Assembly: GCA_050084515.1 (NCBI GenBank)
Contig: CM114271.1
Location: 20,460,001 to 20,524,000, forward strand
Reading direction: 5' to 3'
DNA: 64,000 nucleotides
From: Blasia pusilla
Lineage: Eukaryota
Both the position numbers and the translations under genes were made by a program. Below, in pieces: positions 1 to 36,500 of the stretch (positions within the stretch are counted from its first letter, which is position 1; each line of letters opens with the position of its first letter). A model generated the notes under the pieces. The model saw nothing but the letters and a program-made list of their open reading frames with translations, had not been told where the DNA came from and did not search any database.

Positions 1-263
1 ATCACATTATCTTTACATGGCTTGTGGATCAACTCTACATCCATCAGCGCCAAGGTATCATGCCATCACAGTTGTTTTGGTGTCACTCGATCCTGGGTCT
101 CAAAATACTTGAGTGATATATTATCGGTGAATACTCGAGTCTTGTGGAGCCCTAGATAATGCCGCCACTTCCTCAAGCAATGTACCACCGTGAACAACTC
201 TTTCTCCTGAGTAGGCCATCTCCTTTTAGTATCGCTAAGCTTCTTGCTCTCATATGTCACCGG
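1..263 (-). mobile_element. RNase H segment of chromovirus copy 2 (continues beyond the left edge; split from 7524-11244 by insertion of copy 1)
   Basis: Minus strand encodes PVTYESKKLSDTKRRWPTQEKELFTVVHCLRKWRHYLG. It joins 7524 ff. once the nested element and one ACCGG are removed (compare the intact junction at 7921-7960). Confidence 0.9.
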
Positions 264-1260
264 TGTCGCGACCCTCATGACCAAACAAGTGCCAAGCGGA
301 ACATCGGAACATTAGCGGGCTCACGCTAAGATGGTTTGCGCGTTGGAGTTGTCTCAAAGAGGAGACAAGAGACGAGACGCGAGCGAGAAGTCGCGTTTCA
401 AATGTGATGGTCGCGACTCTGAAACCTGGACCAAACGCGGAATGAGACTTGAAAGAAGTCAAGTCTGGGAAGTGGGTTGCCAAAGGAAAGATCCGGACTT
501 GGAACGCCACTTGCGTTTGAGAGTTTCTGACTGTATTTATGGCCATAACTTTTAGCGCCAAGATGCGTTTGGAGCAAATAAGAGTGCGTTGGAAAGCTTA
601 TGAAGAGCCGGTTCAAACACACTAAAGATCGCTGCAAACGCATAAGCAGCGGCCGAGACACGACCCGAAAACGACTGTAAGTGGAGTCGTGTTGAGGGCC
701 ACAATGAAGGGCCCGAACCTCTTTTCCCAAAGGGGAGGGATTATTGAAGAACCCCAGAAGTACTAGTAAGGGGGAAGGTGTCCGAGAGTGCTTGGAACCC
801 AAACCCCACTTTGGGCGCCGCGGGGCGGCTCAAGGGCATGGAACGGAATGCGGGTTTGGGCGTTGGGTTGGAAAACCTGCACCAAGTCCATTGAGGCGAT
901 TTTAGACATCCCTCTTGGATTTCACGCCGCGACTCAATTACTTGGGTCTCGGTTCGGAACTCACACGAGGACCGTTGGACGCTTGGGATCGCTAGCGCGT
1001 AAGTGTCGTTTGAGATCCTGGACTAACCAGGAAGTCTGTTCCAAGTCTTGAAGGACTTGCCATGTGTTGGGAGCTAGGAACTAAGGAAGGTTGAGCTTGA
1101 TGAGACGCCGAGTTGAGGACTCGGTGGGTTGGAACGCTGGTTGGCCAAACCCGACTAACGAGAGTGCGTGTTTGGGTGCAGATCGGCGATGAGTTCGAAC
1201 TCATCAACGCACGCTTCCGCAACACTAAAGATTGACGTTCAAGGAGAGTAGGGCGCGACA
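264..1260 (+). repeat. 5' LTR of chromovirus copy 1
   Basis: Starts tgtcgcgacc, ends gggcgcgaca (terminal inverted repeat). Near-identical to 6530-7520 and to the reverse complement of 10243-11244. Confidence 0.95.
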
Positions 1261-1262
1261 AG

Positions 1263-1273
1263 TGGTATCGAGC
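1263..1273 (+). promoter_or_regulatory. Primer-binding site complementary to initiator tRNA-Met
   Basis: tggtatcgagc 2 nt after the LTR. The canonical plant PBS is TGGTATCAGAGC. Confidence 0.85.
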
Positions 1274-1408
1274 TTATCCTTGGTGAGCGAGAACTTGGGG
1301 TCGTGGGATCAGCCGGACGCTTGGGAAATTTCAAGGTAGCGGCTAGACTCGGACGCTCGAGGAGGGACGCAAGAAACGAGGAGGAGATCTGAGTGAGTTG
1401 GCTTGGAG

Positions 1409-4400
1409 ATGGCAATCGAGGAGAACAACAAGCGCCAAAAGCGGCGTGAACGGAGAGAGGAACCAATGCCGGACCGTGAAGCTATAGAGGAGTCGGAGAC
1501 TCAAGAGTGAACGCTAGCCGTGAGGACGCCCCAGTGGCGACTCCTTCCGCGGGGCCAGTGGGCCCAAACTCAGGGGAAAGGACGGAGTCGAGCGAGACGT
1601 TGGACTTGTTGAAGGTGTTGGTGGAGCAGATGTCCCAGCAAAGCAAGCGGATTTCGAGTTAGAGGCCACTCAAACCCGAAAAGTGCGGGCAAAAGCTCTG
1701 CAAAGATTTAACCGCCCACGCCATTTATCGGAGTGGGGCGCCATGAAAGTGAAGGATTTTTACGGAACTAGAACTCTACTTGAGGCGCAGAAGGTGCTTG
1801 CCGAGCAAGACAAGGTGACGGTAGCCGCGTTACTTTCTGAAGGATCATGCTCTACAATGGTGGACCGCTCAACGAGAGGAATATCTGGGCGGTGAGTCAC
1901 CTCTAAGTTGGGAGGAGTTCAAGGAGTTGATTGGGGATCGGTTCACTCCGGAGTACCAAGGGTTGCGTGACACGGTGGAATGCGTGCGGATGCGGCAGAG
2001 TGGTTCCTTAAGCGCGTATGTGAGGGAGTTTAGTGCGAAACTGACTTCTAGTCCGAAGATGGATGAGCACGCGAAGAAGGCTATCTTCATTAGTGGACTC
2101 AAGTCGAGCGCTGAGAAGGCCCTTTACCGAATGCCGACGTTGCCAGAGACCTGCGCGGACCTTCTGAAGCTAGCGGAGCGGATTGGGGACGATGAGGTCC
2201 AAACCCAGAAACCCTTCGAGTCAAAAGTTTTTTTGAAGAAGTCGAAAAATAAGGAGGTGTTCAAAAGAGGCTGGAGTGGGGGCCAACACGAACCAGGAGA
2301 GTCGTCTACCCCGGCAGCAAAACGAGTGGAACTTCATGCGAAGCCGAAAGGAGGACAACACTCAAAGACAGGAACGGCAAGGTCGTATGCTACAACCGTA
2401 TGGCGAACCGGGGGCACTGTCGAAAGGGTGTTCAAACCGAAGGTTAGTAATGGGAGTATGATTTGCGTTTGTTGCTAAGCATCTGTTGGCGGGCGATATG
2501 GAGACGTCCCTTCAAGTCACCAAGAGGATGCACAATTTGGTGTACCTAAGATCCAAGATTGCTGATCGCGATGTGTTGTTGCTCGTGGATACAGGTGCTT
2601 CGCAGACTCCTTCCTAAGCCCGAGAATCGTGAAGGAACCGGGCCGTCTACCTCTAAGGCGGACGAGCCCATTCGAGTGGGATTTGCAGGAGGCAAGTCTC
2701 ATCGGACTTCTGATTTGGTCTTGGGTTTGATAGTAGGATGCCGGGTATTCGAGTTGAAGGAGAATTTCACTGTATGCAAAATGGACGGCATTGACGGAGT
2801 TTTGGGGAATACATTCCTAGATGCGTATGAGGTGGAGTTAAGACGCTGACCATTGAGGTTGAGCGTCTTGCTAAAAGGCAAACGGTTACAGGTGCGGTTG
2901 GTCCGTGAGGTTCCAGCAAAGATGGAGTTGGTGAACTCGATCACAAGGAGGAGCATGACTGAGTTGGAGGATGGATTTCTCTGCTTGATGAGACAAGTGG
3001 AGGAGGCTACAAGCAAGATATCTGCAGAGATCGACGCCGCCTCAAGGGGAATCCAGAACCACTCGGGAAGTGGTCCAGAGTTTGAGGATGTCTTGACAAA
3101 TGAGCTTCCGATGAATTGCCGCCGATAGAGCCATAGATCATAAGATAGAGATCATACCCGGTTCCCAACCGCCTTCAAAAGCACCATATAGGTTGAATCA
3201 GGAGGAACTTCTTGAGTTGAAAAAGTAGTTAAGTGAGCTCTTGGAAAAGGGTTACATTAGGACTAGCAAGTCACCTTATGGAGCACCTGTTCTCTTTGTA
3301 AAGAAGAAGGATGGAAAGATGAGGTGTGTGTTGATTACCGTGGCACCGAACAAAGTGACGGTTCGAACAATTATCCTCTTCCAAGGATAGATGATCTCTT
3401 TGATAGGCTGGCAGGCGCGAGATATTTCAGTAGGATTGACTTGAAGTCAAGATATCACCAGATTCGGATTGTCGAGGCAGATGTGGAGAAGACTGCGTGC
3501 AGGACGAGATACGGTTCCTTTGAGTTTGTAGTGATGCCTTTTGGTCTATGTAACGCGCCTCCGACGTTCACCACATTGATGAACTCCATTTTTCACAAGG
3601 AAATGGATGAGTATGTTATCATCTATATCGATGATATACTTATCTATTCGAAGTCACTAGAGGAGCACGTTCGACATGTGAGAACGGTCTTTCTAAGCTA
3701 AGGGCAAATCACCAGATGCGAATGTAGAGAAGAGCGAATTTGGTTTGAGTAAGATCAAATTCTTGGGTCACGTGGTCGTGCAGATGGCGCCACCCGACAT
3801 GGAAAAGGTAAAGGCGATTTCGAGTGGGAACCCCATCCCCTTTGTAAAGGGATGAGGAGGTTCATAGGTGCGGTGCAATTTTATCGCACTTATGTGAAAA
3901 ACTTTTCGGAATTGTGAGACCTCTCACGGATTGACGGTAAAGTTTGCCAACACGACTTGGACCCAGGAAGTTAATGAGGCATTCAACCGAGTGAAGATTC
4001 TATCGTAGGAACCAATGTTAAAGTCGCCGGAGTTTGACAAACCGTTCAAGTGCATACCGGATGCTAGTGATTTCGCGGTTGCAGTGGAATGTTGGTGCAA
4101 GAAGGAGACCGGTGGCATATGAGAGCAAGAAGCTTAGCGACATCGAAAGGAGATGGCCTACTCACGAGAAAGAGTTGTTCGTGGTGGTACATTGCTTGAG
4201 GAAGTGGCGGCATTATCTAGGGCTCCACAAGACTCGAGTATTCACCGATAATATATCACTCAAGTATTTTGAGACCAGGATCGAGTGACACCAAACAATC
4301 GGTGGCATGATACCTTGGCACTCATGGATGTAGAGTTGATCCACAAGCCAGGTAAAATAATGTGATTCCAGATCGTTAAGTCGCAAGGAGGAACACATGC

Positions 4401-5842
4401 CATCGCGACACAGTCTTGAGAGCAATGTTCCCTAAGGAAACAGATCTTGAGAGAAGGATTCGTGAAGGATATATGAAGGATGCTCAAGCAGGAGAATACC
4501 CGAGGAAGTTGAAGCAGGGGTGAGAAGGTGGCCAACATAAGTTTGAGGCACGGTTTACTAAGGTTCAAACAGAGTAGGATCTATGTAGGGCAAGGCGAGG
4601 ATGCGGACCAAGGTGTTAGCGGAATGTCACGACGGACCCTTGGCAAGACATAAAGGAGAGAAATCACGCTAGCTGTTCTTTTCAAGAAGGTTTTGGCCCA
4701 ACATGAAGGAGGATGTTGCTCAATAGAAGCGAATAGAGTCTCTTATGATAAGAAACAAGGCTTTGTGCATCCCTTGCCGATGAAGGACCCTTGCAAAGTG
4801 TGAGTATGGATTTCATCACAAGTCTTAAACTGGGGATACAACGCTATACTTGTGATTGTTGATCGGTTTAGCAAGTACGCAAGAGGCCGATGGTATGTCA
4901 AGACAACGCAACTATTCCTCAGCTGGTGGCGTGCTCATGGTTTGCCGAGAGCATTGTTTCAGATCGATCCAAACTTTACTGCTCGGAAGCACTTGTTCGA
5001 AGGTTTAAGACCAAGCTGAGTTTGATGACGTCTTCCACCCACGCACGGATGGACAACTGAAAAGGTAAACTCTATCGTGAATCAAGATTTGAGGAATTAT
5101 GTCAATGCCGATCAACGCGATTGGGTCAGGTGGTCGAGCATGGCGGAATATCGCTACAACTCGACCAAGATTCTCGCAACAGAGAATCTCCGTTTCTCCT
5201 GGCAAATGGACGAGCCAAAAGGGCCTCTTGATCTAGCCCTTTCGGAAGGGTACTACATTGGCACGAACACGACAAGCGTTTACGGCAGAAAGTTTGTTGG
5301 TAGAGATGCAAGAACGAGAAGAGAGCGCGAGGCGAAGTCTTGCAAAGGCTCAAATGAGGTACGTTAAGCATGCTAACAAGAGTCGGCGCCAAGTACGATT
5401 CCAAGTTGGAGAACAAGTGTGGTTGAGTGTGAAGAATCTCACTCTTCCGAAAGAGTTGTGTCATGGTCGCCCGCCAAGTATGGTGGACCGTATGTGATTG
5501 TGACAAACCCGTTTGAGGATGTGTATACGTTGAGGCTGCCGGACGAGTTCAAGATTCACCCGACCTTTCATGTGTCATTGTTGAAGAAATACCTTCAAGA
5601 TAATTGACGTTTCGAGCGGAGACAGGTGGTGAGACCGCACCCCGGTCATCGTAAATGAGGAGCCGGAGTTTGAGGTGGAAACCATCTTACGTTCGAGGCG
5701 TCGGGCCAACAAGTATGAATACTTGGTAAAATGGAAGGGCTACCATGTGAAGGAGGCCACTTGGATTGCGGAGGCGGATTTGGAACACGCGCAAGAATTA
5801 TTGCGTGACTTCAAGCGAACACAAGCGAAGCACATACGTTAG
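1409..5842 (+). pseudogene. Frameshifted gag-pol of chromovirus copy 1
   Basis: Fragments: Gag (RQSGSLSAYVREF), protease (LLVDTGAS at ~2578-2600), RT ([11 protein letters not shown]...YIDDILIYS), RNase H, integrase (MDFIT, HPRTDGQTEKVN), GPY/F-like region and chromodomain. Confidence 0.9.
5666..5842 (+). other. Integrase C-terminal chromodomain
   Basis: Translates EFEVETILRSRRRANKYEYLVKWKGYHVKEATWIAEADLEHAQELLRDFKR, with the aromatic-cage residues F/W/Y present. Confidence 0.92.
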
Positions 5843-6515
5843 TACGAGGAGAAGCTAGAGACATGACTTGTTATCACTGGAATCTTGGGCCGAAGGCCGT
5901 TGTAACTAGAATATGCTAGTGTTGCAATAAAGGAGTGTATGTATTTGGAGATTCGATACCAGTGTTGATTGCAATTTGTATGTGGTAGTGCATGGCTATG
6001 AGTCGTTCATCATAGACTTAGAATGTACGACAAGAGGACGACAAGGAGTATTTGAGGTGAGAGTCAGATGTGGATAAGCACCTAGAACAGACCTTGTGTT
6101 GGATTACACTCGGGCTCGCCCTAGCGTCGGGCGGGGCAGATGAAGTCTGTCTTGGGGCTTGGGGTGATCTTACTTGTGGCCACATAAGTAAACTTAGTGA
6201 CGCGCCTAAGTCGAATACGAGAGCGACCCAATAGTAGTACGATTTTTGGACCAGGTAAACAGTGTGATGTTTACAATAATGAGTCGAAAGAGTCTAAGGT
6301 TGCACACTTAGTGAGCTTATTTGATAGGTTAGTTCCTTGAACTAGTCCAGGCTTATCGAAGATGAGAGGCTAATAATTCTAAGTGGGGCAAAGCGACAAC
6401 TAAAGACTAAGAGGAATTGCGTGTTAGCCACCAGAACGCAATTCAATGTCAAGGGGTAGGCTGCCCAGGAGACTTGACATAATAAAGGTTTGCGTTGATG
6501 ATGGCATCAACCTCT

Positions 6516-6529
6516 AAAAGAGGGGTGAG
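6516..6529 (+). promoter_or_regulatory. Polypurine tract of chromovirus copy 1
   Basis: aaaagaggggtgag immediately before the 3' LTR. Confidence 0.8.
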
Positions 6530-7520
6530 TGTCGCGACCCTCATGACCAAACAAGTGCCAAGCGGAACATCGAACATTAGCGGCTCACGCTAAGATGGTT
6601 TGCGCGTTGGAGTTGTCTCAAAGAGGAGACAAGAGACGAGACGCGAGCGAGAAGTCGCGTTTCAAATGTGATGGTCGCGACTCTGAAACCTGGACCAAAC
6701 GCGGAATGAGACTTGAAAGAAGTCGAGTCTAGGAAGTGGGTTGCCAAAGGAAAGATCCGGATTTGGAACGCCACTTGCGTTTGAGAGTTTCCGACTGTAT
6801 TTATGGCCATAACTTTTAGCGCCGAGATGCGTTTGGAGCAAATAAGGGTGCGTTGGAAAGCTTATGAAGAGCCATTTCAAACACACCAAAGATCGCTGCA
6901 AACGCATACGCACCGGCCGAGACACAACCCGAAAACGACTGTAAGTGGAGTCGTGTTGAGGGCCACAATGAAGGGCCCGAACCTCTTTTCCCAAAGGGGA
7001 GGGGTTATTGGAGAACCCCAGAAGTACTAGTAAGGGGGAAGGTCTCCGAGAGTGCTTGGAACCCAAACCCCACTTTGGGCGCCGCGGGGCGGCTCAAGGG
7101 CATGGAACGGAACGCGGGTTTGGGCGTTGGGTTGGAAAACCTGCACCAAGTCCATTGAGGCGATTTTAGACATCCCTCTTGGATTTCACGCCGCGACTCA
7201 ATTACTTGGGTCTCGGTTCGAACTCACACGAGGACCGTTGGACAGTTGGGATCGCTAGGCGTAAGTGCCGTTTCAGATCCTTGACTAACTAGAAGTCTGT
7301 TCCAAGTCTTGAAGGACTTGCCATGTGTTGGGAGCTAGGAACTAAGGAAGGTTGAGCTTGATGAGACGCCGAGTTGAGGACTCGTGGGTTGAACGCCGTT
7401 GGCCAAACCCGACTAACGAGAGTGCGTGTTTGGGTGCAGATCGGCGATGAGTTCGTGACTCATCAACGCACGCTTCCGCAACACTAAAGATTGACGTTCA
7501 AGGAGAGTAGGGGCAAGACA
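6530..7520 (+). repeat. 3' LTR of chromovirus copy 1
   Basis: Direct repeat of 264-1260. Confidence 0.95.
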
Positions 7521-7523
7521 AGC

Positions 7524-10500
7524 ACCGGTCTCCCTTCTTGCACCAACATTCCTGGAACCGCGAAATCACTAGCATCGGTATGCACTTCGAACCGTTTGTC
7601 AAACTCCGGCAGCCTTCAACACCGGTTCCCGCGATAGAATCGCTTCACTCGGTTGAATGCCTCATTAACTTCATGGGTCCAAGTCGTGTTGGCAAACTTT
7701 GATGTCCAATCCGTGAGAGGTCTTACAATTCCCAAAAAGTTTTCACCATGAACCTCCTCAAGACAATGGATGGGGTTCCCACTGAATCGCCTTCACCTTC
7801 TCCATGTCAGATCGATGCCATTTGCATCGACCACGTGACCCAAGAATTTGATCTTATCAAACCAAATTCGCTCTTCTCTACATTCGCATACAGCTGATTT
7901 GCCCTCAGTGTCGCTAAGCTTCTTGCTCTCATATGCCACCGGTCTCCCTTCTTGCACCAACATTCCTGCAACCGCGAAATCACTAGCATCCGTATGCACT
8001 TCGAACGGTTTGTCAAACTCCGGCAGCTTTAACATTGGTTCCTGCGATAGAATCTGCTTCACTCGGTTGAATGCCTCATTAACTTCATGGGTCCAAGTCG
8101 TGTTGGCAAACTTTGATGTCCAATCCGTGAGAGGTCTTACAATTCCCAAAAAGTTTTTCACATAAGTACGATAAAATTGCACCGCACCTATGAACCTCCT
8201 CATCCCCTTTACAATGGATGGGGGTTCCCACTCGGAAATCGCCTTTACCTTTTCCATGTCTGGACTGACGCCATCTGCACTGACCACGTGACCCAAGAAT
8301 TTGATCTTACTCAAACCAAATTTGCTCTTCTCTACATTCGCATACAGTTGATTTGCCCTTAGCTTAGACAAGACCGCTCTCACATGTCGAACGTGCTCCT
8401 CTAGTGACTTCGAATAGATAAGTATGTCATCGATATAGATGATAACATACTCATCCATTTCCTTGTGAAAAATGGAGTTCATCAATGTGGTGAACGTCGG
8501 AGGCGCGTTACATAGACCGAAAGGCATCACTACAAACTCAAAGGAACCGATCTCCCCCCGCACGTCTTCTCCACATCCGCCTCGACAATCCGACTGGTGA
8601 TATCTTGACTTCAAGTCAATCCTACTGAAATATCTCGCTGCCGACCTATCAAAGAGATCATCTATCCTTGAAGAGGATAATTGTTCCGAACCGTCACTTT
8701 GTTCGATTGCACGGTAATCAACACACTGACCTCATCTTTCCATCCTTCTTCTTTACAAAGAGAACAGGTGCTCCATAAGGTGACTTGCTAGTCCTAATGT
8801 AACCCTTTTCCAAGAGCTCACTTAATTGCTTTTTCAACTCAAGAAGTTCCTCCTGATTCAACCTATATGGTGCTTTTGAAGGCGGTTGGGAACCGGGTAT
8901 GATCTCTATCTTATGATCTACGGCTCTATGCGGCGGCAATTCAGTCGGAAGCTCATTTGTCAAGACATCCTCAAACTCCTGGATCACTTCCTGGAGTGGT
9001 TGGGACTCCCCTTGAGGCAAAGTGTCCCGATCTCTGGACAGATATCGCTTGTAGCCTCCTCCACTTGTCTCATCAAGGAGAGAAATCCATCCTCCAACTC
9101 AGTCATGCTCCTCCTTGTGATCGAGTTCACTAACTCCATTTTCGCTGGAACCTCATGAACCAACCGCACTCAGAATCGTTTGCCTTTTTTAGCAAGACGC
9201 TCAACCTCAATGGTCGGGCGCCTTTCCACCTCATACGCATCTAGGAATGTATTCCCCAAAACTCCGTCAATGCCATCCATTTCGACACAAAGTGAAATTC
9301 TCCTTCAACTCGAATACCCGCATCTCATGTCAAACCCAAGACCAAATCAAGTCCGATGAGACTTGCCTCCCGCAAATCCCACTCGAATGGGCTCGTCCGC
9401 TTAGAGGTAGACGGCCCAGTTCCTTCACGATTCTCGGCTTAGGAAGGAGTGCGAAGCACCTAGAAGTCGGGCCAAGACTAAACTCCCTCACATACGCGCT
9501 TAAGGAACCACTGCCGCATCCGACGCATTCCACCGTGTCGCGCAACCCTTGGTACTGGAGTGAACCGATCCCCAATCAACTCCTTGAACTCCTCCCAACT
9601 TAGAGGTGACTCGCCGCCAGATATTCCTCTCATTGAGTGCCCACCATTGTAGAGCATGATCCTTCAGAAAGTAACGGCTACCGTCACCTTGTCTCGCCAG
9701 CACCCTCTCGCGCTCGGGCATACGATTCCATTCAGAAGGAAATCCTTCACTTTCATGAGCGCCCACTCCAAGAAATGGCGTAAGGGTTCGTCTTGCAGAG
9801 CTTTTTGCCCGCACCGGTTTCGAGTGGCCTCTAACTCTGCAATCCGCTTGCTTTGCTGGGACATCTGCTCCACCAACACCTTCAACAAGTCCAACGTTTG
9901 GCTCGACTCGGTCCGTTCCCTCGAGTTTGGGCCCACCGCCCCGTGGAAGGATTCGCCCCGAACGCCCTCAAGATCGGCGTTCAGCTCTTCGAGTCTCCGT
10001 CTCCTCTATAGCTTCACGGTCCGGCATTGGTTCCTCTCTTGGTTCACATCGCTTGATTCGGCGCTTCTTGGGTTGTTCTCCCTCGATCGCCATTTCCAAG
10101 CCAACTCACTCAGATCTCCTCCTCGTTTCTTGCATCCCTCCTCCAGCGTCCGAGTCTAGCCGCTACCTTGAAATTTCCCAAGCGTCCGGCTGATCCCACG
10201 ACCCCAAGTTCTCGCTCACTAAGGATTAGCTCTAATACCACTTGTCGCGCCCCTACTCTCCTTGAACGTCAATCTTTAGTGTTGCGGAAGCGTGCGTTGA
10301 GTAGGTCACGAACTCATCGCCGATCTGCACCCAAACACGCACTCTCATTAGTCGGGTTTGGCCAACCTGCGTTCCAACCCACCGAGTCCTCAACTCGGCG
10401 TCTCATCAAGCTCAACCTTCCTTAGTTCCTAACTTCCAACACATGGCAAGTCCTTCAAGACTTGGAACAGACTTTCTGGTTAGTCCAAGGATGTGAAACG

Positions 10501-11244
10501 ACACTTGCGCGCCTAGCGATCCCAACTGTTCAACGGTCCTTGGATGAGTTCCGAACCGAGACCCAAGTAATTGAGTCGCGGGGTGGAATCCAAGAGGGAT
10601 GTCTAAAATCGCCTCAATGGACTTGGTGTAGGTTTTCCAACCCAACCCCCAAACTCGCATTGTGTTCCATGCCCTTAAGCCGCCCCGCGGCGCCCAAAGT
10701 GGGGTTTGGGTTCCAAGCACTCTCGGAGACCTTCCCCTTTACTAGTACTTCTGGGGTTCTCCAATAACCCCTCCCCTTTGGGAAAAGAGGGTCGGGCCCT
10801 TCATTGTGGCCCTCAACCCGACTCCACTTACAATCGTTTTTTGGGTTGTATCTCGGCCGCTGCGTATGCGTTTGCAGCGATCTTTGGTGCGTTTGGACCG
10901 GCTCTCCATAAGCTTTCCAATGCATCCTTATTTGTTCCAAACGCATCTTGGAGCTAAAAGTTATGGCCATAAATACAGTCGGAAACTCTCAAACGCTAAT
11001 GGCGTTCCAAATCCGGATCTTTCCTTTGGCAACCCACTTCCTAGACTCGACTTCTTTCAAGTCTCATTCGCATTTGGTCCAAGTTTCTCAATCGCGACCA
11101 TAACAGCTGAAACGCGGTTCCTCGCTCGCGTCTCGTCTCTTGTCTCCTCTTTGAGACAACTCCAACGCGCAAACCATCTTAACGTGAGCCCGCTAATGTT
11201 CCGATGTTCCGCTTGGCACTTGTTTGGTCATGAGGGTCGCAACA
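7524..11244 (-). mobile_element. Chromovirus copy 2 (5' LTR, gag, PR, RT, RH), with an internal gag/PR deletion and an RT-RH tandem duplication
   Basis: LTR 10243-11244 and PBS gctctaatacca at 10229-10240 (reverse complement TGGTATTAGAGC). ORF 7793-8614 is RT/RH with YIDD. Same family as copy 1. Confidence 0.93.
10243..11244 (-). repeat. 5' LTR of chromovirus copy 2
   Basis: Reverse complement of 264-1260. Ends gagggtcgcaaca at 11244. Confidence 0.93.
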
Positions 11245-12984: not shown

Positions 12985-13945
12985 GAGGGTGTTAGATCTC
13001 TTCGGAGGGATTAGCACCGGATTGGCTGCCATATTGCAGTCGGGCATACGGGTGCATCAAGTACCTTTATGTGGAGAGAGATGAGACCACGCAGCGAGTA
13101 TCATTACGTCACGTGGCAAGATTGGCCCAGAGGTATCATGAGTTGTTGTCGGTATCTGCAGTACGGGGATACCAGCCTACGCTACCCGCCGACATCTCTT
13201 TGGTGGGGGAGCAGGATTTGGATAGAGTTGGCACCATTCATTTGGTGATTGCTGGATGGCCATGTCAGGGTCATTCATCAACTGGCCGAGGATTTGGATT
13301 GCAGGATCCGAGGTCAGGGATGTTTTGGGAGATGTTGCGAGTAGTACGACACTTGCAGGAGAGTCAGATATGTTCTCCAACGTACATTTTGGAGAACGTG
13401 CCGTTGTTGGGAGATACTCGTACACGTGTGATGACGAGTCTACATCAGGTGAGGTCCTGGTTGGGACTGCTGTGTTGTTAGATGCAGCGAGAGTTGGGTC
13501 ACGTGCCCATCGTCCACAACTGTGGAGGACGAACCTGATACCATCAGAGGTACTGAGTCGAGCCTACACTGGAGTCCAGAGAGCACCACATCTCACAGTG
13601 GATGCTATTTTGGACCCAGGGCGTCGATCTCAGGTGGTGACACGCGATGATAGACCACCGTTGGCCACGGCCAATAAGGTGGGGGAGTTGAGGGCAGCCT
13701 TACCTACGTTGGTGAGCTTCCCAGCATCCCATGCCTTTTGTCAGGGAGGGCCACGCATGATTTAGGATGAGGTGACCGGAGTATTGGAGGAGCCTACAGC
13801 AGATGAGCGCGAGCGCGCCATGGGGTTCACTACCGGTACTACGGCGGTGCCAGGGATGATTGAGACATCACGGAGACAAGTGTTGGGGCAGGCAATGGAC
13901 CTCAACTATCTCACATGGATAGTCAGCCTAGGTATGGCTGAGCAG
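12985..13945 (+). other. C5 cytosine DNA methyltransferase domain (DNMT3-like) inside the retrotransposon polyprotein
   Basis: Motif I LDLFGGISTG (12991), motif II YVERD, motif IV AGWPCQG (13251), motif VI LENV (13392), motif VIII SRAHRP..W.TN (13502), motif IX ERERAMGF (13805) and motif X RQVLGQAM (13882), in canonical order. Confidence 0.9.
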
Positions 13946-16900
13946 AGACGGATGCGAGTGTCATCCATGCCGCCACGCCCCAGTTGGACCCACCGCCACG
14001 TGGTCTCAGACAGGCATTGGATGGGGCGTAGACGAGGAGAGATAGGCACCCATGGACTTCCTGGGACGTCGTTCGAGCAGAGAGTGCGAAGGCGGCTAGA
14101 GTAGCACATGTTCATTTTTCGGATATGGAGCATGGTGTAGGAGGTTAGAGTGGAGTGGCTGTTGCGGAGGTGGCTAGGATTGCTACATAGCAACCACAGC
14201 CGGAGGTTGCGTCCTCTCCGAGTGAGGTCACGATGGAGACTTGGGAGACTGTGATAGGTCTCAAGTTGATAGGAGAAGAGCGACGGCGAGTTCATAGGTT
14301 TCTGAGAGGGCATGTCACTTGTTTTGCCTTCAGTATGAGAGACTTGGGTACGCTGAAGGGTCCCGGGATACGGATTGAGTTGGCTAGTGATACGCCAATC
14401 TTTCGTCGACACTACAGGTATTCTAATATGGAGCGAGCCTTGATTCAGAGCAGGAGTCAGGACTTGTTGGAGGCAGGACTTGTGGAGTTATCATATGGGG
14501 AGTATGCATCTGCCAGAGTCATGCCGGCAAAGAAGGATATGTATGGCATTTGGACGGATAGGCGGATGTGTGGAGATTACCGTCCTATCAACCGACAGAC
14601 AAGGTCAGATCGGTATGCCATGCCTACTCCTGAGGAGATCTTTGATGCGGTAGGGCATGCAAATATCTTAAGTACTTTAGATCTCCGTGCTGGCTATCAT
14701 CAACTTCCTATCAGGTTGGAGGACAAGGAGAAGACAACATTCTGGGGGATAGATCGGTTCGGGAGAGATTGCTTGTATCAGTGGTGGTTCTTACCATTTG
14801 GATTGAAGAACGCGCCTGCGGAGTTTCAGAGAGTGATGGATAAGATTCTGGCTGGCTTGGATTTTGTACGATGTTACATAGATGATATTCTTATCTTCAG
14901 TTCCACGGTTGAGGAGCATGAGCGACACTTGGAGGAGGTATTTCGGCGATTGCAGTTACATGGACTGAAGTTACATCCAGGCAAGTGCAGATTCTTTCAG
15001 GAGTAGATTGAGTACTTGGGACACACCATATACCCGAGTGGGTTAGGCATTCAGCAGACGAAGGTAGAGGCTATTGTGCAGATTCCACGCCCTACAGATG
15101 TGAGTCGAGTCCGAGCATTTCTTGGACTGGCGAACTTCTATCGACAGTATGTCAAGGGTTTTAGTGCGATCGCAAAGTCTTTGACCTTGTTGATGAGACT
15201 TGATCAGGTGTGGTTGTGGGGAGATGATCAGAGCGAGCATTTCAGAGCTCAGGACAAAGTTGACGTCCTCACCCATTTTACAGAGACCGGTTAGGGGTCG
15301 CCCATTCCAGTTACATACGGATTGGAGCATGTTGGGTCTAGGAGCAGTGCTTACTTAGAGGGATGACGAGGAGAGGGAGTTCGTTGTGGCTTACGCAAGC
15401 CGATCGAACAACATTGCAGAGGCAAAGTACAGCTCCTACAAGGGAGAGTGCTTGGCTGCAATGTGGGCCGTGGCACATTTTAGGTGCTATTTATTCGGCA
15501 ACCCTTTCATACTTATCACTGATCATCAGCCGTTGAGGTGGTTGATAGAGTCCGACAAGCTTACGGGAAAGCTTGCCAGGTGGGCTCTATTACTACAGGA
15601 TTATGACTTCGAGGTGGTTCATAGACCAGGTCGGATGAACTAGGATGCGGATGGGTTGAGTCGTAACCCATGTCCGAGTCAGAGAGACGTCATGGGAGCT
15701 CGATGGCACGGAGAGAGTGACGAGGAGATGGTGCCCGGTTGGCATGCATCTGCCTATCTTTGTTGGTTGACTATGGCAAGTCAGCCACAGGTGATGACTC
15801 CAGTGGTGGGATTGGATGATGAGTCTTTGGATCCGGAGGTTAGTGAGGAGGCGACAGGTGGTCGTGATATCCATGACGACGTGGAGGTTGTGGAGTTCTT
15901 GCACACTGGCGTCATTGCGAGTACAGTGAGTGCTAGGGAGCGGGATCGGATCCTACTGAGAGCCAAGAGGTTCAGGTGGGAGGGGACTCACATTTTACGG
16001 GTATGGGGAGATGGTAGGATACGAGTGGTACCTCATCCTTCTCAGCGAGCACGTGTAGTGCGACATGCCCATGAGGAGTTGGGACATTTCGGAGTAAAGC
16101 GTACTTACAGCTTACTCCAAGTTCAAGATTGGTGGGCGCATGCATGCATATGGTACTGGTACAGATTTGTGGCCAGATGTATAGTATGTGACAGAGTGGG
16201 AGCATTGAAGGATGCTCGCACTCTGTCACATCCTTCAATGCTCCCACTCCGCATTTACATCCTTTGCCGATTATGGGTTTAGGTTATCGGTGGAGTTTAG
16301 ACTTTGCGGGACCTTTGCCATTGACAGGGCGTCATCATAAGTACGTGTTGGTCATGGTGGAGCATTTCTCCAAGTGGATAGAGTTGGTGGCACTACTAGA
16401 CAAGGCAAGCAAGGGAACAACTTATGCGTTTCTAGATCGTGTGCTTAGTCACTTTGGTGCACCGGCGAAGGTGTTGACTGACCAGGGTATCGAGTTCAGG
16501 GGAGAGTTTCAGGCCTTATGTGATCAGGCGCTGATAGATCACCGCACCACGTCCAGGGATCATCCTAAGGCGGATGGGTTGGCGGAGAGAGTGGTACAGA
16601 CGGTGAAGAGAGGATTGTGCAAGTATGGCTTGCAGCGGGGACAGGTGAGGGAGTGGGACCTACAGTTGCCATGGTTGGCTATGGGTTATCGCTTTAGTCG
16701 GCAGGCATCCTTGGCATCATTTTCACCGTAATTTTTGCTCTTTGGGAGAGAGCCAGATTTACCTCCAGCCATTCGACGTGACATGGCAGAGGTGTTAGAT
16801 CTTGATGATCCAGATGTGTGGGTACAAGCATGTTCTCAGAGGGCAGAAGTTTTTCGTAGAGTTATGCCTATGGCCTTTGAGAACTTAGCTATTGCCCAGC

Positions 16901-17195
16901 ATAGAGATACATTGAGATATGCGACCATTCGTGGAGGAGGTTATTGTCCAGGGATTAGGAGGTTTCATCCTGGAGATTACGTGTATTTACAGCACGCGGC
17001 ACCCACGACGCTAGATGTCACTGCAGGCGCCGCGATCCCACGTGTGCGCGAGGTATTACCGACCGAGTCCTCATGTTGGAGGGACGGGATGGTATGGTTT
17101 GGAAGGATCATGTGCGCAATTGTGCGCCATGTCATCTTTCAAACATAGATGGGACGGTGGATCCGAGCTTGGCAGTGGTACCTGCAGGCTTGAGG

Positions 17196-17333
17196 TGTAT
17201 GTTGTGCGGATCTACGAGGGGACCAGCCACCATGTTGGTATGTGATGGTTGTTCTCGAGGGTGGCATATGTTATGTCTGACCCCCCCTCTTGATGTGGTT
17301 CCCACGGGACGATGGATGTGTCCGAGATGTGTA
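17196..17333 (+). other. PHD zinc finger at the integrase C-terminus
   Basis: CMLCGSTRGPATMLVCDGCSRGWHMLCLTPPLDVVPTGRWMCPRC, a C4HC3 pattern. Also present at 47664-47810. Confidence 0.95.
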
Positions 17334-17412
17334 TAGGGCAGTAGGTCATGTCAGAGAGATGTGATATTTTCTATCTGGAGTTAGGGGGATCCAACTGCCA
17401 ACTAGGGGGGTG

Positions 17413-18137
17413 GTTGTGTGATCTCCATGTATATGTATGAGTTGATTTTTTGTACATGTGTGGATCGACCTGTGTGTGGGGAAGATCGGTGTTGTGTGGT
17501 GTAGATGTGACGAGCGATGTATGTTGTGTAGCGATATGTATGTGCACGACAGGTGTCACATCTGAGTTGCCGATAGGACGAGATCTATCGTGGATAGGGC
17601 GTAGGAGCCAGCGGACTATCTTGAGTATAACTTTGTCCCACGGTATCGGATGAGGTTGAGGATAGGTCCATTGTGTCAGGAATGTTGTTCCTAACAACTT
17701 TCATATTGAGGTCTTTTACAGCCGGGTGACTTATTGACCAGGTCACCCGCCCCTGTTAACCTGTGCGCACGGGTTACCAAGGGAAGGGCTATTTTTAGGG
17801 GAAGAGCCTTTTGGCTCTTCCTAACCCTATATAAGAGAGGAAGATGGCTTTCCTAAGCCATCTTTCTCATGTTGGGCCATTGGAGCACCTCCCTTGTATG
17901 TGTGTGAGCTAGGACTAGGGTGCTAGCGTCCGGATTCCTTGATAGCACAGGGTGGACGAGGCTCAATATCCCGATGTAGATTGAGGAGTGAAGTTTTAGT
18001 TGTGTGATCTCCATATATATGTATGAGTTGATTTTTTGTACATGTGTGGATCGACCCGTGTGTGGGGAAGATCGGTGTTGTGTGGTGTAGATGTGACGAG
18101 CGATGAATGTTGTGTAGCGATATGTATGCGCACGATA
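17413..18137 (+). repeat. 3' split-direct-repeat block B1-gg-A2-B2 of copy S1
   Basis: 139-bp B at 17413-17551 and 17999-18137. A (17554-17998) matches the 5' termini of copies S2 (32643-33096) and S3 (55858-56193) and contains a TATA-like ctatataag at ~17827. Confidence 0.92.
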
Positions 18138-18197
18138 AAGTTCTGATGTTTCGTTTCGCGTTTGTTTCATATTTGTTTGGTTATGAGGGTCGCAATA
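18138..18197 (-). repeat. Terminus of a diverged chromovirus-type LTR into which copy S1 inserted
   Basis: ...tttgtttggttatgagggtcgcaata matches the LTR end ...ttgtttggtcatgagggtcgcaaca at 11220-11244. Confidence 0.65.
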
Positions 18198-21100
18198 ATA
18201 TGTGTAGTTTTTTTAAAAGAGGAGGTTTTACAAAACTCTACATCTAGGGCAACAACTTCAAGACATAAGGAGTAAAATATGAGGTTTGTACCTACAAACT
18301 AGATTTATATAGGTTTCACTTACAAAATATATGTAGGAAAAGTGCAAAACTTAGAAAGGAATATGGGAAGAGTTCTAAAAAATGCAGCATTACAAATTGG
18401 CTCTAAATGAGGAAAAGAATATTAAAGATTTATGCGATGATAGTAGTGAATTAGAAAAAGTTAAGTGTAAGCTCAATTGTTCTTCTTCCACACTAAATGG
18501 TTTGGTGAGATGAACTTATTTAAAAAGATATCTTCGATGGATAGATGGAAGTAATATCATTTCTAGCACCACTGTGACCTATAAAGAAGGAATCATAGAT
18601 GTATGGATTTTGGATAGTAATGATAGAAAAAGATTGTATTCTTTCTTGAGAATTGAATAAGTTGATGTTGGTTTTTTTTAATGATTTAAAAGTATTTTTC
18701 ATTTAATAATTCAAATAGGAATGTAACTTTCTTAAATTTTGAAGAAGTAATAACACTCCACTCCTTAATTAAAATTTAAATAATACCCCACTCCTCTAGA
18801 TAACTCCATTTCTCCATAAAAGTTTAACTAATACCTATTTCTCCCTCCTCCTCCCACTAACTAAATCAATGATTAAATTATACTATTATTTGAGGAGCAT
18901 TCTTCAAATAGCAACAACTGAATATATGACACGTGATCTAGCGTTTAGGATGGCCTATGTGGACATTTAAAGTCTCACAGGTCCTAACTAATTTTAACTA
19001 ACAAAATCATTTCCCATAATTCTTTAAATTGAAATTCCAAAAGGGGTCTATTTTGATAATGGTATCTATATCATTATGGGAAAGCGCTCTTATAAGAGGT
19101 GTCATGTCTCCTCATGACACGTGTCTTTTTGGACAAATAAGATTCCTCCTCATAATTCATTATTCCATCGATTACAAGTGCTCTAGTTTGGAATCCGTTA
19201 CGTTTTTTCACCCGTGTGTACTTATCAACAAGACTTCATTGTTAGGAAGTAGGGGTCTTAAAATCCAAAAAAAGAAGTAAGATGCTTGAAATAAAGTTGT
19301 GTCACACATGATGTATAAATGTACATACATTGACATTCTCGAGAGTACTGTTAGAGTACAACCATCTACATCTTAGTTAGACATACCAATAGGGATATGT
19401 CTTGTGTGTCTCTCATGGATATCCACACATCGGTCACATGTTATGAAGCAAAAGCAAGATTATTCATGCAAAACGTAGGAAAAGATCATAGGTCAAATTC
19501 AATATATCAAAGATGACCAATCTTGGTTTGGGCCTATGTAGAGCCCAAACTTTAAAGTGCCATTTCAATTAACCTTGCTGCACTTCGACTCAAATGGGCT
19601 TCACAATTAACTTGAATCGAAGTGCAGCAAGGCTAATGGGTCCAATGGAAAAAATCTAGAAAATAGCCAGGCTCTTGGTAGGGTTTAGATAAGATTGTTT
19701 TGAGGCTCTTCCTAGAATGGAGAAGGGACATCTTATACAAACAGAAAGATACACTGTTCTCAAAATGCGACCTTGTAATGGTAAATACTTCAGATCCCAA
19801 GCTCAAAAATTGAACGCACCACTTTCAAAGTGTGTAAATCTTCATCGAACCACATGCTAAAAGTGAACCCCAATCTCTCCCAGTTTTCTTTTGCTCCCAC
19901 ATGCTCACATTATAGAATAATATGAGACCAGTGCTCTTACTCTTAAGAGAAATCCATGTTATAACGAAAAACCCACATGCAGAAGACAAAGTAGCAACAT
20001 GACACTATTTTATCACTCAAAGTCTAATTTTAGTAGGAGCCGAATAAAATAGGTATTATTGGCTGATGGAAAATTAATGGTGTTTAAAAAGAACCTTTTT
20101 CTTAGTGGTGTTCATAACATGTTATTTTAAAAAAACTTCATGTTAACTAGTAGGTCGTAGGTTTTATGCTGCATTTCGAAACGTGGATTGAGAATGCAAC
20201 AAATGCCCAATATTTCTGGTGGAAGGTACTCGGACCTATTCGTCTGGAAAGTACGATACATTCGATGTTCCATATTCGTGTGTCTCTAACGGGAAAGCGC
20301 CATAATAGGACACGGTTCATGTGTTATCAGCAAATCTTGACCGACGAAGTATATGCTTGCAATCCTCCCAGTATGATGTTTCAAGATCATCTAGTCAAAT
20401 AAACCTTGTTACGGCCTCTACAAGTTCCTATCGTTATTTTTCCTTAGACTATCCACGTATCCCATAGGTACGAACCAACTACTCTCTCCTCCATCGAGTT
20501 CACCGCACACTGGTTATATACTCTATGGGAACCACGGAATCAAGAGACTCGTACTTGTTTCTCACACATACACGTGTGGGCACCTCCAACCAATACAAGT
20601 ATTTTGGATAGAGGACTTCTTTTGTGTGCAATCGGAAGAAGGAAAAACTCACCCTCACGACCCGCACTCCAAGTCATCATATGAGTTGGAATCTTAGGAG
20701 CAGAATATCGAGAAATTGTAAAAACCTGAGTTAACATTGAAGAAGGGAAAAATTGGACCCATTGACAAAGGCATTACCTTTCATGAAGATCATCACATTG
20801 CTGCTTTCATGAGTCCAGATCACAGTGACGTCTTCCCCTCCAGTTCGATTCCTGGTGTTCCTTGAGGACCTTGAAATCTTCTGAGACACGGAACCAGCCA
20901 GACCTGCCACTAAGCGGCGTGCCATGCCCGGTAACGGAACTAGAGACCCGGCACAAACATGTTGCCAGCCGGAAATCTACAGGCCACAAGACTCTAAGCC
21001 CTTGACTTTGTACATTGTTTTATAAACTGGTGAAGAAGAAAGAGTGCATCGAATGCGTTTGTGTTTGGAAACCAGGAGATTTAAGTGAGGGTTTATGAAA

Positions 21101-33571: not shown

Positions 33572-36500
33572 TCTTATGTCTTTTGCGATGGATTGACGAG
33601 CTTGTGATAGAGTGCCTTCGATGATATTAGAGGACAACCTCAAGATGTCATGGATGACCTGTTGAGGCATCAAGTAACCTGAGAGAGCAAGTTTCCCCTT
33701 CGTTTCGGCTCATTTGGAGCCATATAGATAAAATTACTATTTTGGGTAAGCTATCGTTATAAGTGGAATTTAGTTTCTACTTTGGGAAGTGGCCCTTGAT
33801 CCCCTCCAGCAAGTCAAGAGCCAAGGAGGTGACCTGCGAGCATAGGTTACCATAGAGAGAGCGTGAGAGAGGGAAGGAGGTATACCCAAGGAGAGAGAGC
33901 TTTGGAACTCATTCTCTCTTTGTTGAACCTCTTGGCATGAGGCGGACGAGCTATGGTCTTCCTTGCTTTGTGAGTAATCCAAGTCTTCTATTAGGAGAGT
34001 GGGTTTGGTTTGACATGAGAAAGAGATGTAGTTGTGTGCATATTATGAGAGATATTTGTTGTGCGCATACACATCACTACATAACATACATCGTTGTCAC
34101 CGAACACACACACAAACACGTACAATCCCATGCTAACTCATGACATCCAAACAACAAGACCAGAAGTACCAAAATATCTCATCAAGTATAACAATGCTCC
34201 ATCAACCAAGACATCGTAGGACTCCGCATCAGTCACTATCGCCTTAGCTCGCACCACGGACTCATCTGTAGGATGTCCTGGGCGAATCCTCACCACGACC
34301 TCATGTTGGGTGATATACTGTGTGGTACTTGCTCCACCCAAGGATGTCTGTATCCGGAATGGACAACGCTCCACATCGGCTCTCGTCAAGCCCAATCCTC
34401 TGAATGACAATTTTCCCAACATCATGGGTTGCGCTCCTGAATCCAACAAGACGCGTTGCGGACTAAAAGCTCTACTTCCGGGACTCACCAACTGGAATAC
34501 CTCTCCCCGGTTATCCAGCAACACAGCACCAGGAGAAGCCATGACATGCTCTATCATGGGTCTAGCGAGCATCTCCGCCATCCTAGCAATCGTAGCCTGC
34601 CATGGATATGACGTGGATGGCCCGATCATCCGCTCCAAGGGCAGGTCCATCACCTCCTCTGCAATCACCTCTGAACGTGATGCAAGAACTCCAACTCCAC
34701 ACTCACATAGCGTAGCGACCAGCCGGAACACCTCGACGGGCGTACCTCCCAATGTCATAACATCGGAAGCAGAAAATAGCAGAGCACGGTACACCATCGT
34801 GGCCGCCCCCAACATCGTACTCGACACATGCTCCTCCTGAGCGTCGGCAATAGGAGTTGTCGCACTTGTTTCTCCCATTTTCCTCCATGCCTACACACCA
34901 ATAACATCACCAACTCTCCGGGAATTCTGATTAGGACCCATCAATGGGATCCTCATAGCCTCGGACAACGTGAAAGATTGAGGAAGTCTGGTCTGTTTCG
35001 TGGCTTTCCCCACTTTGGATCCAACTCTGCGACTGCTCCACACGTCATAATTGCGGCGGCCTCCATCTGGGCAACCCCGCACATCCAACTAGGGTCCTCC
35101 ATATCTGTGGCTGCTCCATATGATGTTGATGCCACGGATCCGGCATCGGGTAACCTCAATGCCATAGCGGCAATCTGCTCATGTAGCTGGTGTGTATGAG
35201 TAGGCATCCTCGCCTCATGCCCAGTGTCTCCCTCGACGCATCTAGATGGTGGGACTCTACCTCCTCCACGGGCAATTCCACCACCATGTCAAGCAACTTT
35301 AGCTCCTCGTCCCCCAATGGGACCACCTGGTGCACAACCTCTAGCCCACCCGTACCGGCTAGTGGCTCTGGTGCCCTCTCTAGCTCTCGGTCCGGATGTA
35401 ACTCAGGGTGTAAACTGAAACACTTGGCGCATGTCTGACCATACCTCTAAAAATAGGCACACTGATAACCTCTTGGTGCAGCACCATCTCTTCCTCCATG
35501 ATGAGGCACACGTATATGACCCTTACGAGTGCAATTATGCTGATGATGGGCTCCACCACATGACCAACAAGTAATAGTAGGCGGCTGCTGCTGAGCCGCA
35601 TATGAAGGCACATGTCTCTATGGCATGGCCTCATGGTATCCTCCCTAAGCTCATGGTGCCACAGTCAACCTATCTCGAAGTCTATGTTGCTGCACTGGTG
35701 GTACAGGCAATCGTGACTTCTCTCGCCTAGAACCCATGGTGGATGCGCTCTCCTCCGCCATGTTGCGCTTAATATTCTTGGCGGTCCTAAAAAAATCTCT
35801 CAATGTAGGGGAGGTGTTCATAGGAAGCACCCCTCCCGCACCCGTGTCTGCTGGGTCCAATCCATGCATCGCGTACCATGACTGGATAGCCTAAGCCTTT
35901 GTCAACCCATGAGTGACGTTGATCAACTGGCACAAGCGAGTGTAAGCATCATGCAAACTCTCACCCGGGCGCCTGTGGAAGTTGTGGATGCTCCGCAACT
36001 TCTCTGTCTGTACCCCCTCGTAGCTCGCCCTCAACTCAACGAAGAACTCAACCACCAGGTTGAAGCTGGGACGAACCCGACTAGACGGTACAACTGCTCC
36101 AGTGCGAGTGACCCCTCCTAGTAGAAGAGGAAGTAGCCTCTCCTGACTCCTCCTCCTCATCTGGGAATGGCTCCGTCCATGACACATAGTGTGGGTTATT
36201 GTAGAGTCGTCATGCCTCAATCTCTTGGGCATGTCTGTGGGAGAACTCATGGTAATTGTCCATGGGCGCCCCCTCTAAATGCTAGAACATACTGCTCCAT
36301 GTTGTAAACGGGTTGAACTCTCTAGAGTTCCCAGCCTATTGTGAGTCATACCAACTTCTAAACTCTGTAATGAAGTCGTGTAGCTCTAAAGCGCCTACAC
36401 CACCCAAAAACCTATGCGGTTCTCTACCCCGGTCGTCCATCTTGTACGCCCAACTGGTAGGACCACTCAATGTGTACGGTGGATCACTAACACACTCCTC

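Follow-up and report, generated by a model that had tools for sequence, protein, structure and literature searches.

A 64,000-nucleotide (nt) stretch of the liverwort Blasia pusilla (GenBank assembly GCA_050084515.1, contig CM114271.1, positions 20,460,001–20,524,000 of the forward strand; hereafter, the window) contains an internal junction of a gypsy-type retroelement family, at which the conserved right end of the element (..CAYRAYA) abuts its left end (TGTCAY..) across a 2-nt spacer. The junction lies between the repeats B1 and A2 near the 3' end of the element (B1-NN-A2, with NN denoting the spacer). We propose that it is probably a pre-formed integrase substrate, used from complementary DNA (cDNA) whose ends have been joined. 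The broader claim, that an entire lineage of gypsy-type retrotransposons in streptophytes obligatorily integrates from end-joined (circular) cDNA and that its DDE integrase opens the internal CA-NN-TG, stands at even chances in our judgement.

Comparison of the window with itself revealed three decayed copies (S1, S2 and S3) of one retroelement family. The junction was read directly as CACGACA-gg-TGTCAC in S1 (17545–17559, plus strand) and as CACGACA-gt-TGTCAC in S3 (47456–47442, minus strand). Repeat A starts with TGTCAC and measures 445 nt in the A2 of S1, and repeat B (ca. 138 nt) ends with CACGACA. A search for the junction pattern with at most one mismatch returned only these two sites in the whole window, compared with 0.06 expected from 100 shuffles, one of which reached two sites; as the two junctions are homologous copies, this count is weak by itself. 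The copies and their parts are as follows.

11245 (5' side cut off) to 18137, plus strand: copy S1, in the order internal-B1-gg-A2-B2
17400–17410, plus strand: purine/G-run of S1, polypurine-tract-like, stopping 2 nt short of B1 (direct reading)
17413–17551, plus strand: repeat B1 of S1, with the CACGACA end, 97% identical to B2
17552–17553, plus strand: 2-nt spacer gg of S1, between the abutted right and left ends
17554–17998, plus strand: repeat A2 of S1, with the TGTCAC start, TATA-like motifs and the presumed transcript start within
17999–18137, plus strand: repeat B2 of S1, with a CACGATA end, followed by single-copy flank
33096–25277, minus strand: copy S2, in the order A1-internal-B, with a single B and without A2/B2, ca. 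75% identical to S1 and S3
33096–32644, minus strand: repeat A1 of S2
32643–32615, minus strand: primer-binding-like stretch of S2
25414–25277, minus strand: single repeat B of S2
56193–47201, minus strand: copy S3, in the order A1-internal-B1-gt-A2-B2
55858–56193, minus strand: repeat A1 of S3, the 5' end of the element, with CCTT before it (56197–56194)
55829–55857, minus strand: stretch of S3 immediately after A1 on the 3' side, a homologue of the primer-binding-like stretch of S2, with no B after A1
47201–47587, minus strand: 3' block of S3 (B1 47587–47450, spacer gt 47449–47448, A2 47447–47339, B2 47338–47201)
48612–49405, minus strand: nested 794-bp insertion in S3 with TGTCAC...CACGACA ends, apparently a solo A.B unit from a related subfamily

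The A2 of S3 keeps just its first 109 nt, and the A1 of S3 is without two internal segments found in the A2 of S1.

The termini of the family were located with a pile-up on 16700–18400, comprising contigs of the DNA runs X1 and X3 and raw reads of the RNA runs X21 and X22, all under the host species label. The family is very abundant in the host (45,214 contig pieces in X1). Diverse flanks appeared directly behind 17551 in 28 contigs of X1 and 47 contigs of X3 (consensus agreement 0.37–0.40) and directly before 17554 in 20 contigs of X3 (agreement 0.40). Since the contigs diverge at exactly these points, genomic copies end at the final A of CACGACA and begin at the first T of TGTCAC. At the junction, these right and left ends of the family itself lie 2 nt apart, and the termini in the pile-up bear out a preliminary description of the sequence, which had read the B1/A2 boundary as the right end abutting the left end across exactly 2 nt. 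No insertion or deletion was seen at 17550–17555 among the 12 insertion/deletion rows listed, of 30 in the pile-up. In the 3' flank of S1, summed contig depth fell from thousands to ca. 5 past ca. 18180.

The outer ends carry target duplications. The same four letters flank TGTCAC...CACGACA on both sides in S3 (CCTT; 56197–56194 and 47200–47197), and CATT likewise flanks S2 (33100–33097 and 25276–25273). Among ten elements with both ends readable, including metagenome relatives introduced below, the 4-nt flanks matched perfectly in five (S2, S3, L033, L029 and L042), at three of four positions in four (L006, L019, L023 and L041) and at two of four in one (L025), the chance of a perfect match being 1 in 256. 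TG...CA termini with a target duplication of 4–6 bp are a trait of Ty3/gypsy elements, and the family has such termini with a 4-bp duplication.

Metagenome relatives revealed that the arrangement extends well beyond the window. Eighty metagenome loci (prefix L) were fetched with an alignment of 15 relatives, and A and B units of two clades were searched against all 80. The units were present in 35 loci, representing 31 distinct elements after four pairs of duplicate contigs had been merged (L005/6, L015/16, L025/26 and L032/33); the other 45, on short contigs or belonging to different gypsy lineages, gave no A/B match. B-NN-A was found in 17 of the 31 distinct elements and continued into B2 in 14 of them (L004, L006, L008, L012, L019, L023, L025, L030, L033, L035, L043, L045, L046 and L078); two contigs stop inside A2 (L014 and L028), and A2 is followed by non-B sequence in one (L018). 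The rest comprise 11 elements with a single B (L011, L015, L020, L021, L029, L037, L041, L042, L055, L060 and L074), two with only A1 on the contig (L013 and L036) and one with a deletion running into A2 (L010). This deletion spans the end of pol to the middle of A2 (L010:3280–3640), and L018 additionally carries an inverted B fragment at 8845–9005.

The preliminary description had named variable spacer length among the outcomes that would speak against its interpretation, but the length was constant, at 2 nt in all 19 junctions (two in the window and 17 in distinct metagenome relatives), with gap-free alignment around the spacer. Every one of these junctions reads CA-Y-R-A-Y-A, two variable letters, T-N-T-Y-A-Y, with gg, gt, ac, gc, at and ga as spacers. 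The A1-internal-B1-NN-A2-B2 layout is a family trait. Moreover, none of the 14 A1 units examined in the metagenome relatives had a B upstream, and none was adjacent to any B (0/14 in each case). Within a window copy, B1 and B2 were 97.1% and 95.7% identical, exceeding the identity between copies (91.2–94.2%), and within most relatives the A1/A2 and B1/B2 identities were alike. The most conserved island comprised the last 40 nt of B and the first bases of A, with the peak of summed depth in the bin 17498–17554, and a diverged, transcribed subfamily has only about 17515–17559 in common with S1. RNA reads crossing the junction were mostly of one orientation (80 vs. 11 in X21, 123 vs. 14 in X22).

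The encoded proteins place the family among Ty3-type elements. The following remnants were recognised in S1.

12996–13481, plus strand: C5 cytosine DNA methylase remnant in pol (Pfam PF00145, E 5e-10)
14191–15643, plus strand: reverse transcriptase and RNase H remnants (PF00078, E 1.4e-26; PF17917, E 5e-26)
15644–16731, plus strand: integrase zinc-binding domain and DDE core remnants (PF17921, E 1e-6; PF00665, E 1.2e-14)
16959–17336, plus strand: C-terminal PHD finger (PF00628, E 1.5e-11)

Pfam matched the reverse transcriptase, RNase H, Integrase_H2C2 and rve domains in the Ty3-type Pol order. The best protein relatives were from liverworts (Calypogeia, 78% identity, and Marchantia), with further matches in Sphagnum and Chara. 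An intact relative of 1516 amino acids (P0020) has the full domain set, and its best match among solved structures was Ty3 Gag-Pol (E 2e-94). Of the integrase residues, D1169 and D1229 were invariant across the 15 aligned relatives, and E1264, 35 residues past the second D, was at least 90% conserved. Pfam reported no tyrosine recombinase family in 21 reading frames of the window, 14 frames of relatives or the intact P0020. The conserved D,D,35,E residues and the Pfam domains confirmed that the enzyme is of the DDE type named from the sequence at the outset, not a tyrosine recombinase. In the relatives, the sequence upstream of the methylase matched protease domains (E 6e-6 in L033) and a zinc knuckle, weakly in both cases. 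Gag-like and protease remnants are also part of what the family encodes. The C5 methylase domain (PF00145) itself lies upstream of the reverse transcriptase in S1 (12996–13481), L006 (10163–10819) and P0020 (residues 82–140); the differences between copies are transition-rich. Within the PHD-finger region, RNA depth at 17042–17155 was 5–10 times that of its neighbours (about 70–110 vs. 8–20), and well-agreeing loose ends occurred before 17065 and 17076 in both RNA and DNA. This excess depth suggests a subfamily or a host transcript with only that segment in common.

Our interpretation builds on candidate primer sites. In the relatives, a run of 6–9 G lies directly before B1, with 2 nt between run and B1 in the window's clade; it is decayed in L055 and displaced in L023. 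Judged by its position, which is where a polypurine tract usually marks the start of the repeat to be synthesised, this G-run is the putative plus-strand primer site. What follows A1 is not B but a stretch with its complement within A. In elements of the Sphagnum-type clade, the first 13 nt of this stretch pair 128–132 nt before the end of A, 31 nt past a TATA box (13/13 in L019; 12/13 in L006; 11/13 in L033, L029 and L074; 10/13 in L036; 9/13 in L028). In the clade nearest to the window, L014 (12/13) and L004 (10/13) use one shared site 173 nt before the end of A and differ from each other in both partners of the pairing. The pairing exceeded that of shuffles (p < 0.05) in six of 14 relatives, and the stretch of S2 at 32643–32615 pairs just after a duplicated TATA motif (−34.1 kcal/mol, z −5.4). 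In the retrotransposon Tf1, the primer-binding site is complementary to the first bases of its own transcript. The stretch after A1 is a candidate primer-binding site that resembles this self-priming type, and self-priming is also mentioned for plant Tcn1-type elements in the accessible part of a plant survey (PMC6317226). No transfer RNA (tRNA)-type primer-binding site was recognised by eye after A1, without a comparison with tRNA sequences. Together, the G-run and the primer-binding-like stretch bracket B-NN-A, not the integrated A+B unit.

With primer sites beside A1 and B1, the classical rules of reverse transcription would make B-NN-A the synthesised repeat. Reverse transcription would start at the self-priming-type site beside A1 and plus-strand synthesis at the G-run beside B1, as the positions of these sites imply, so that the linear cDNA would be [B-NN-A]-internal-[B-NN-A], of which the integrated form would be a circular permutation. 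Because B is found upstream of A1 in none of the 14 units, the ends of this predicted linear cDNA would differ from the integrated ends. When the placement of the primer sites is considered with the conserved ends and target duplications, it indicates that linear cDNA, as made, cannot be the substrate. We therefore consider that the A end of the cDNA might be joined to the B start, most simply in a two-repeat circle and possibly in a concatemer. The integrase would then cleave both strands of one CA-NN-TG junction, each 3' of its CA, and two cuts 2 bp apart would linearise the molecule with ordinary processed ends bearing the usual 2-nt 5' overhangs. Integration would yield A1...B1-NN-A2.B2 with a 4-bp duplication, and the retained internal junction could serve as the template for the next cycle. 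The chemistry of this proposal would be normal integrase processing done twice, with nothing new required.

The joint between A2 and B2 is consistent with such end joining. In 12 relatives of one clade, this joint was exact in about five, shorter by 2 nt in two and by 1 nt in one, and longer by 1 nt in two, the remaining two being larger or unclear; overall it ranged from −2 to +6 nt, whereas the length of the spacer was constant. Furthermore, B was preceded by the primer-binding stretch in 30 loose-end contigs of X1. A form consisting of the end of A, 30–34 nt of the primer-binding stretch and the start of B was found in four contigs of X1, one contig of X3 and three RNA reads of X21, in which 17998/17999 is joined to 17411–17413; neither the window nor the 80 metagenome loci contained it. 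The length of this insert agrees with that of the duplex predicted for S2, and the form could represent a mini element or, alternatively, a variant joint at the 3' end. The variable joint and the forms with the inserted stretch fit what would be expected from joined cDNA ends, sometimes with the copied primer retained.

The most serious alternative is that the junction is a template only, restoring the ends in the manner of DIRS-1, and that the integrase uses the free TG/CA ends of a linear A1...B2 cDNA. The A-coding-B-A-B order is indeed the layout of DIRS-order elements in the covered parts of two reports (PMC8969392, PMC3783388), and part of a study on DIRS-1 describes an essential internal junction copy along with cDNA that is mostly linear and single-stranded (PMC7192593). 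TG...CA ends with 4-bp duplications are equally compatible with canonical end processing, and the solo A.B unit at 48612–49405 is expected whether the cDNA is end-joined or the junction is merely a template. However, classical synthesis from the A1 and B1 primer sites would place B-NN left of A and leave A2 without anything on its right. To obtain linear A1...B2, an extra, unknown priming event at the 3' end of the RNA would be needed, along with the removal of ca. 140 nt on the left, and both the variable A2/B2 joint and the forms with the primer stretch between A and B would be left unexplained. We consequently consider a template-only role unlikely, although it is a distinctly better candidate than the explanations that follow.

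Partial tandem long terminal repeats (LTRs) can arise by recombination, and the family might be an ordinary LTR retrotransposon whose LTR is A+B; secondary rearrangements such as unequal recombination, inherited by these copies, would then account for the additional B1 and for the lack of B at the 5' end. A+B has TG...CA ends as normal LTRs do, and a solo A.B unit exists at 48612–49405. Against this, 14 distinct relatives, at only 30–50% protein identity to the query, share the layout with two window copies, B stands neither before nor after A1 in any of the 14 A1 units, and the primer-binding stretch adjoins A1 rather than B, just as the G-run adjoins B1 rather than A2. This explanation is highly improbable. 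A DIRS/Ngaro-type element with a tyrosine recombinase encoded elsewhere or lost, and with an incidental DDE integrase, is equally hard to credit: the split direct repeats are arranged exactly as in Ngaro/PAT elements (PMC8969392, PMC3783388), and a methyltransferase is frequent in DIRS elements according to parts of two sources (PMC7192593; 10.64898/2026.05.21.726589), but Pfam reported no tyrosine recombinase family in the frames and protein named above, the reverse transcriptase is closest to Ty3, the methylase is of the C5 cytosine type (PF00145) and not the Dam-like type of DIRS elements, the conserved TG/CA ends are typical integrase substrates, and the 4-bp target duplications (perfect in five of ten elements) are lacking in DIRS elements as far as the covered part of one report describes them (PMC8969392).

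Several observations weigh against integration from end-joined cDNA. Neither circular or end-joined extrachromosomal DNA nor cleavage of the junction was seen, in reads unable to reveal circles; integrated copies, too, contain each junction that the proposed circle would have, and for this reason reads cannot separate the two forms. Two-LTR circles of retroviruses are regarded as dead ends. A single B was found in 11 of the 31 distinct relatives as well as in S2, and in L018, B1-gt-A2 is followed by non-B sequence (14275–14830), that is, B2 is lacking. The pairing of the primer-binding-like stretch did not reach p < 0.05 in eight of 14 relatives, the boundary being a few nt off in at least three (L013, L025 and L041), and it was at shuffle level for S3 (z 0.1) and for the A2 of S1 paired with the stretch of S3 (z −0.9). 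The transcript start inside A, on which self-priming would depend, is one that we infer, and the RNA pile-up (X21 and X22) contained no cluster of read starts; its one weak cluster of RNA ends (17833, five molecules, X22) was unusable for mapping transcript ends. In S3, A1 and A2 were just 84% identical over 63 nt, with seven of nine differences being transitions, compared with 95.7% for B1 and B2, which is unexpected if both pairs came from one cycle; this divergence might reflect unequal decay, a chimeric copy or gene conversion. Finally, the reading frames of S1, S2 and S3 are all interrupted by stop codons.

The single-B copies may be B1×B2 deletions or primary products of a one-repeat circle, which are inseparable. 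S2 was considered as proof of integration from a one-repeat circle and rejected in that role, as a B1×B2 deletion yields the same product. Taken together, the earlier suggestion that a circular or permuted cDNA is opened by integrase at the junction was supported in part: the primer sites, the variation at the joint and the absence of B upstream of A1 (0/14) fit it, whereas no circle or cleavage was observed.

Other repeats occupy parts of the window. The 794-bp insertion in S3 is absent from the homologous site of S1, and its sequence matches RNA loose-end consensus strings; its subfamily is therefore transcribed. Pieces related to it lie at 33578–34062 and 38328–38821. A different repeat system occupies 1–11244 and borders S1 where its 5' side is truncated (11245). 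This system contains direct repeats (263–1262 and 6529–7522, 96%), inverted matches (264–2034 with 11244–9477, and 2593–4142 with 9461–7909) and a 414-bp duplication at 7523–8362.

In the textbook view, LTR retrotransposons and retroviruses integrate linear cDNA, and circles are by-products. If our proposal is true, a circle junction would be a natural integration substrate, and the family would represent a convergent, integrase-driven counterpart of the DIRS pathway. It would also mean that an integrase can act on an internal junction, which would reopen the old question of circle junctions as substrates, and that split repeats, the DIRS solution, either arose or persisted together with another enzyme of integration. 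In bryophyte genomes, LTR-finding software, which expects identical terminal repeats, is likely to overlook the family or set its bounds wrongly, abundant though it is in the host.

The closest described counterpart is KnitGypsy-Dnmt3 of Klebsormidium nitens, for which the legend of Fig. 4c in de Mendoza et al. (2018; PMC5890265) gives gypsy domains together with DIRS-like A-coding-B-A-B repeats. Judging from the covered parts of that paper, the two share a gypsy-type Pol and a cytosine DNA methylase in one frame, DIRS-like repeats and a streptophyte host. They differ in that the host there is Klebsormidium, while the family here is from a liverwort with relatives in metagenome contigs, and they are likened by description, not by sequence. 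The searched parts of the paper and its supplements contained no junction, spacer, target duplication, primer sites or mechanism (PMC5890265). No Klebsormidium sequence was present among the protein matches, and a search with the methylase part of P0020 gave six matches, none labelled Klebsormidium. In the literature on split repeats in gypsy elements, of which subscription journals were mostly uncovered, only the 2018 legend was found, without a mechanism, and the name KnitGypsy appeared in no further paper. The accessible parts of a preprint on adenine-methyltransferase retrotransposons (10.64898/2026.05.21.726589) do not mention split repeats, and the family is mentioned neither in those of a study of the Marchantia methylome (PMC5784723) nor in those of a survey of plant LTR elements (PMC6317226). 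The preliminary description did not take into account that A-coding-B-A-B repeats with gypsy domains were already in print for Klebsormidium (part of PMC5890265). The Blasia family adds a liverwort member to a little-known gypsy lineage of streptophytes whose repeats are permuted.

DIRS-order elements (PAT-like elements, Ngaro and TOC1 of Chlamydomonas) share the A1-internal-B1-A2-B2 order, in which the internal B/A copies the joined ends, and the covered parts of three reports (PMC8969392, PMC3783388, PMC7192593) propose for them an intermediate that is circular and double-stranded. Where these elements have a tyrosine recombinase, a DIRS-type reverse transcriptase and no target duplication, the Blasia family combines a DDE integrase and a Ty3-like reverse transcriptase with TG...CA ends and 4-bp duplications. 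These features are those of Ty3/gypsy elements, particularly Tf1/sushi, with which the family also shares the reverse transcriptase-RNase H-integrase order, the short target duplication and a G-rich putative plus-strand primer site. Unlike these elements, it has no identical terminal repeats, the 5' end being A only and the 3' end B-NN-A-B (S3 and 14 relatives); its candidate primer sites define B-NN-A, permuted relative to the integrated ends; and it has a PHD finger in place of the chromodomain and an added methylase. In the bacterial elements IS3 and IS30, the ends abut across a short spacer in circle or tandem-dimer junctions, which are an active DDE substrate; retroviral circle junctions carry 4 nt. 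The Blasia family resembles IS3 and IS30 in its abutted ends with a fixed short spacer (2 nt in all 19 junctions). The enzymes and hosts are unrelated, and whereas the spacer of the IS elements is flanking DNA, that of the Blasia family is inherited within the element.

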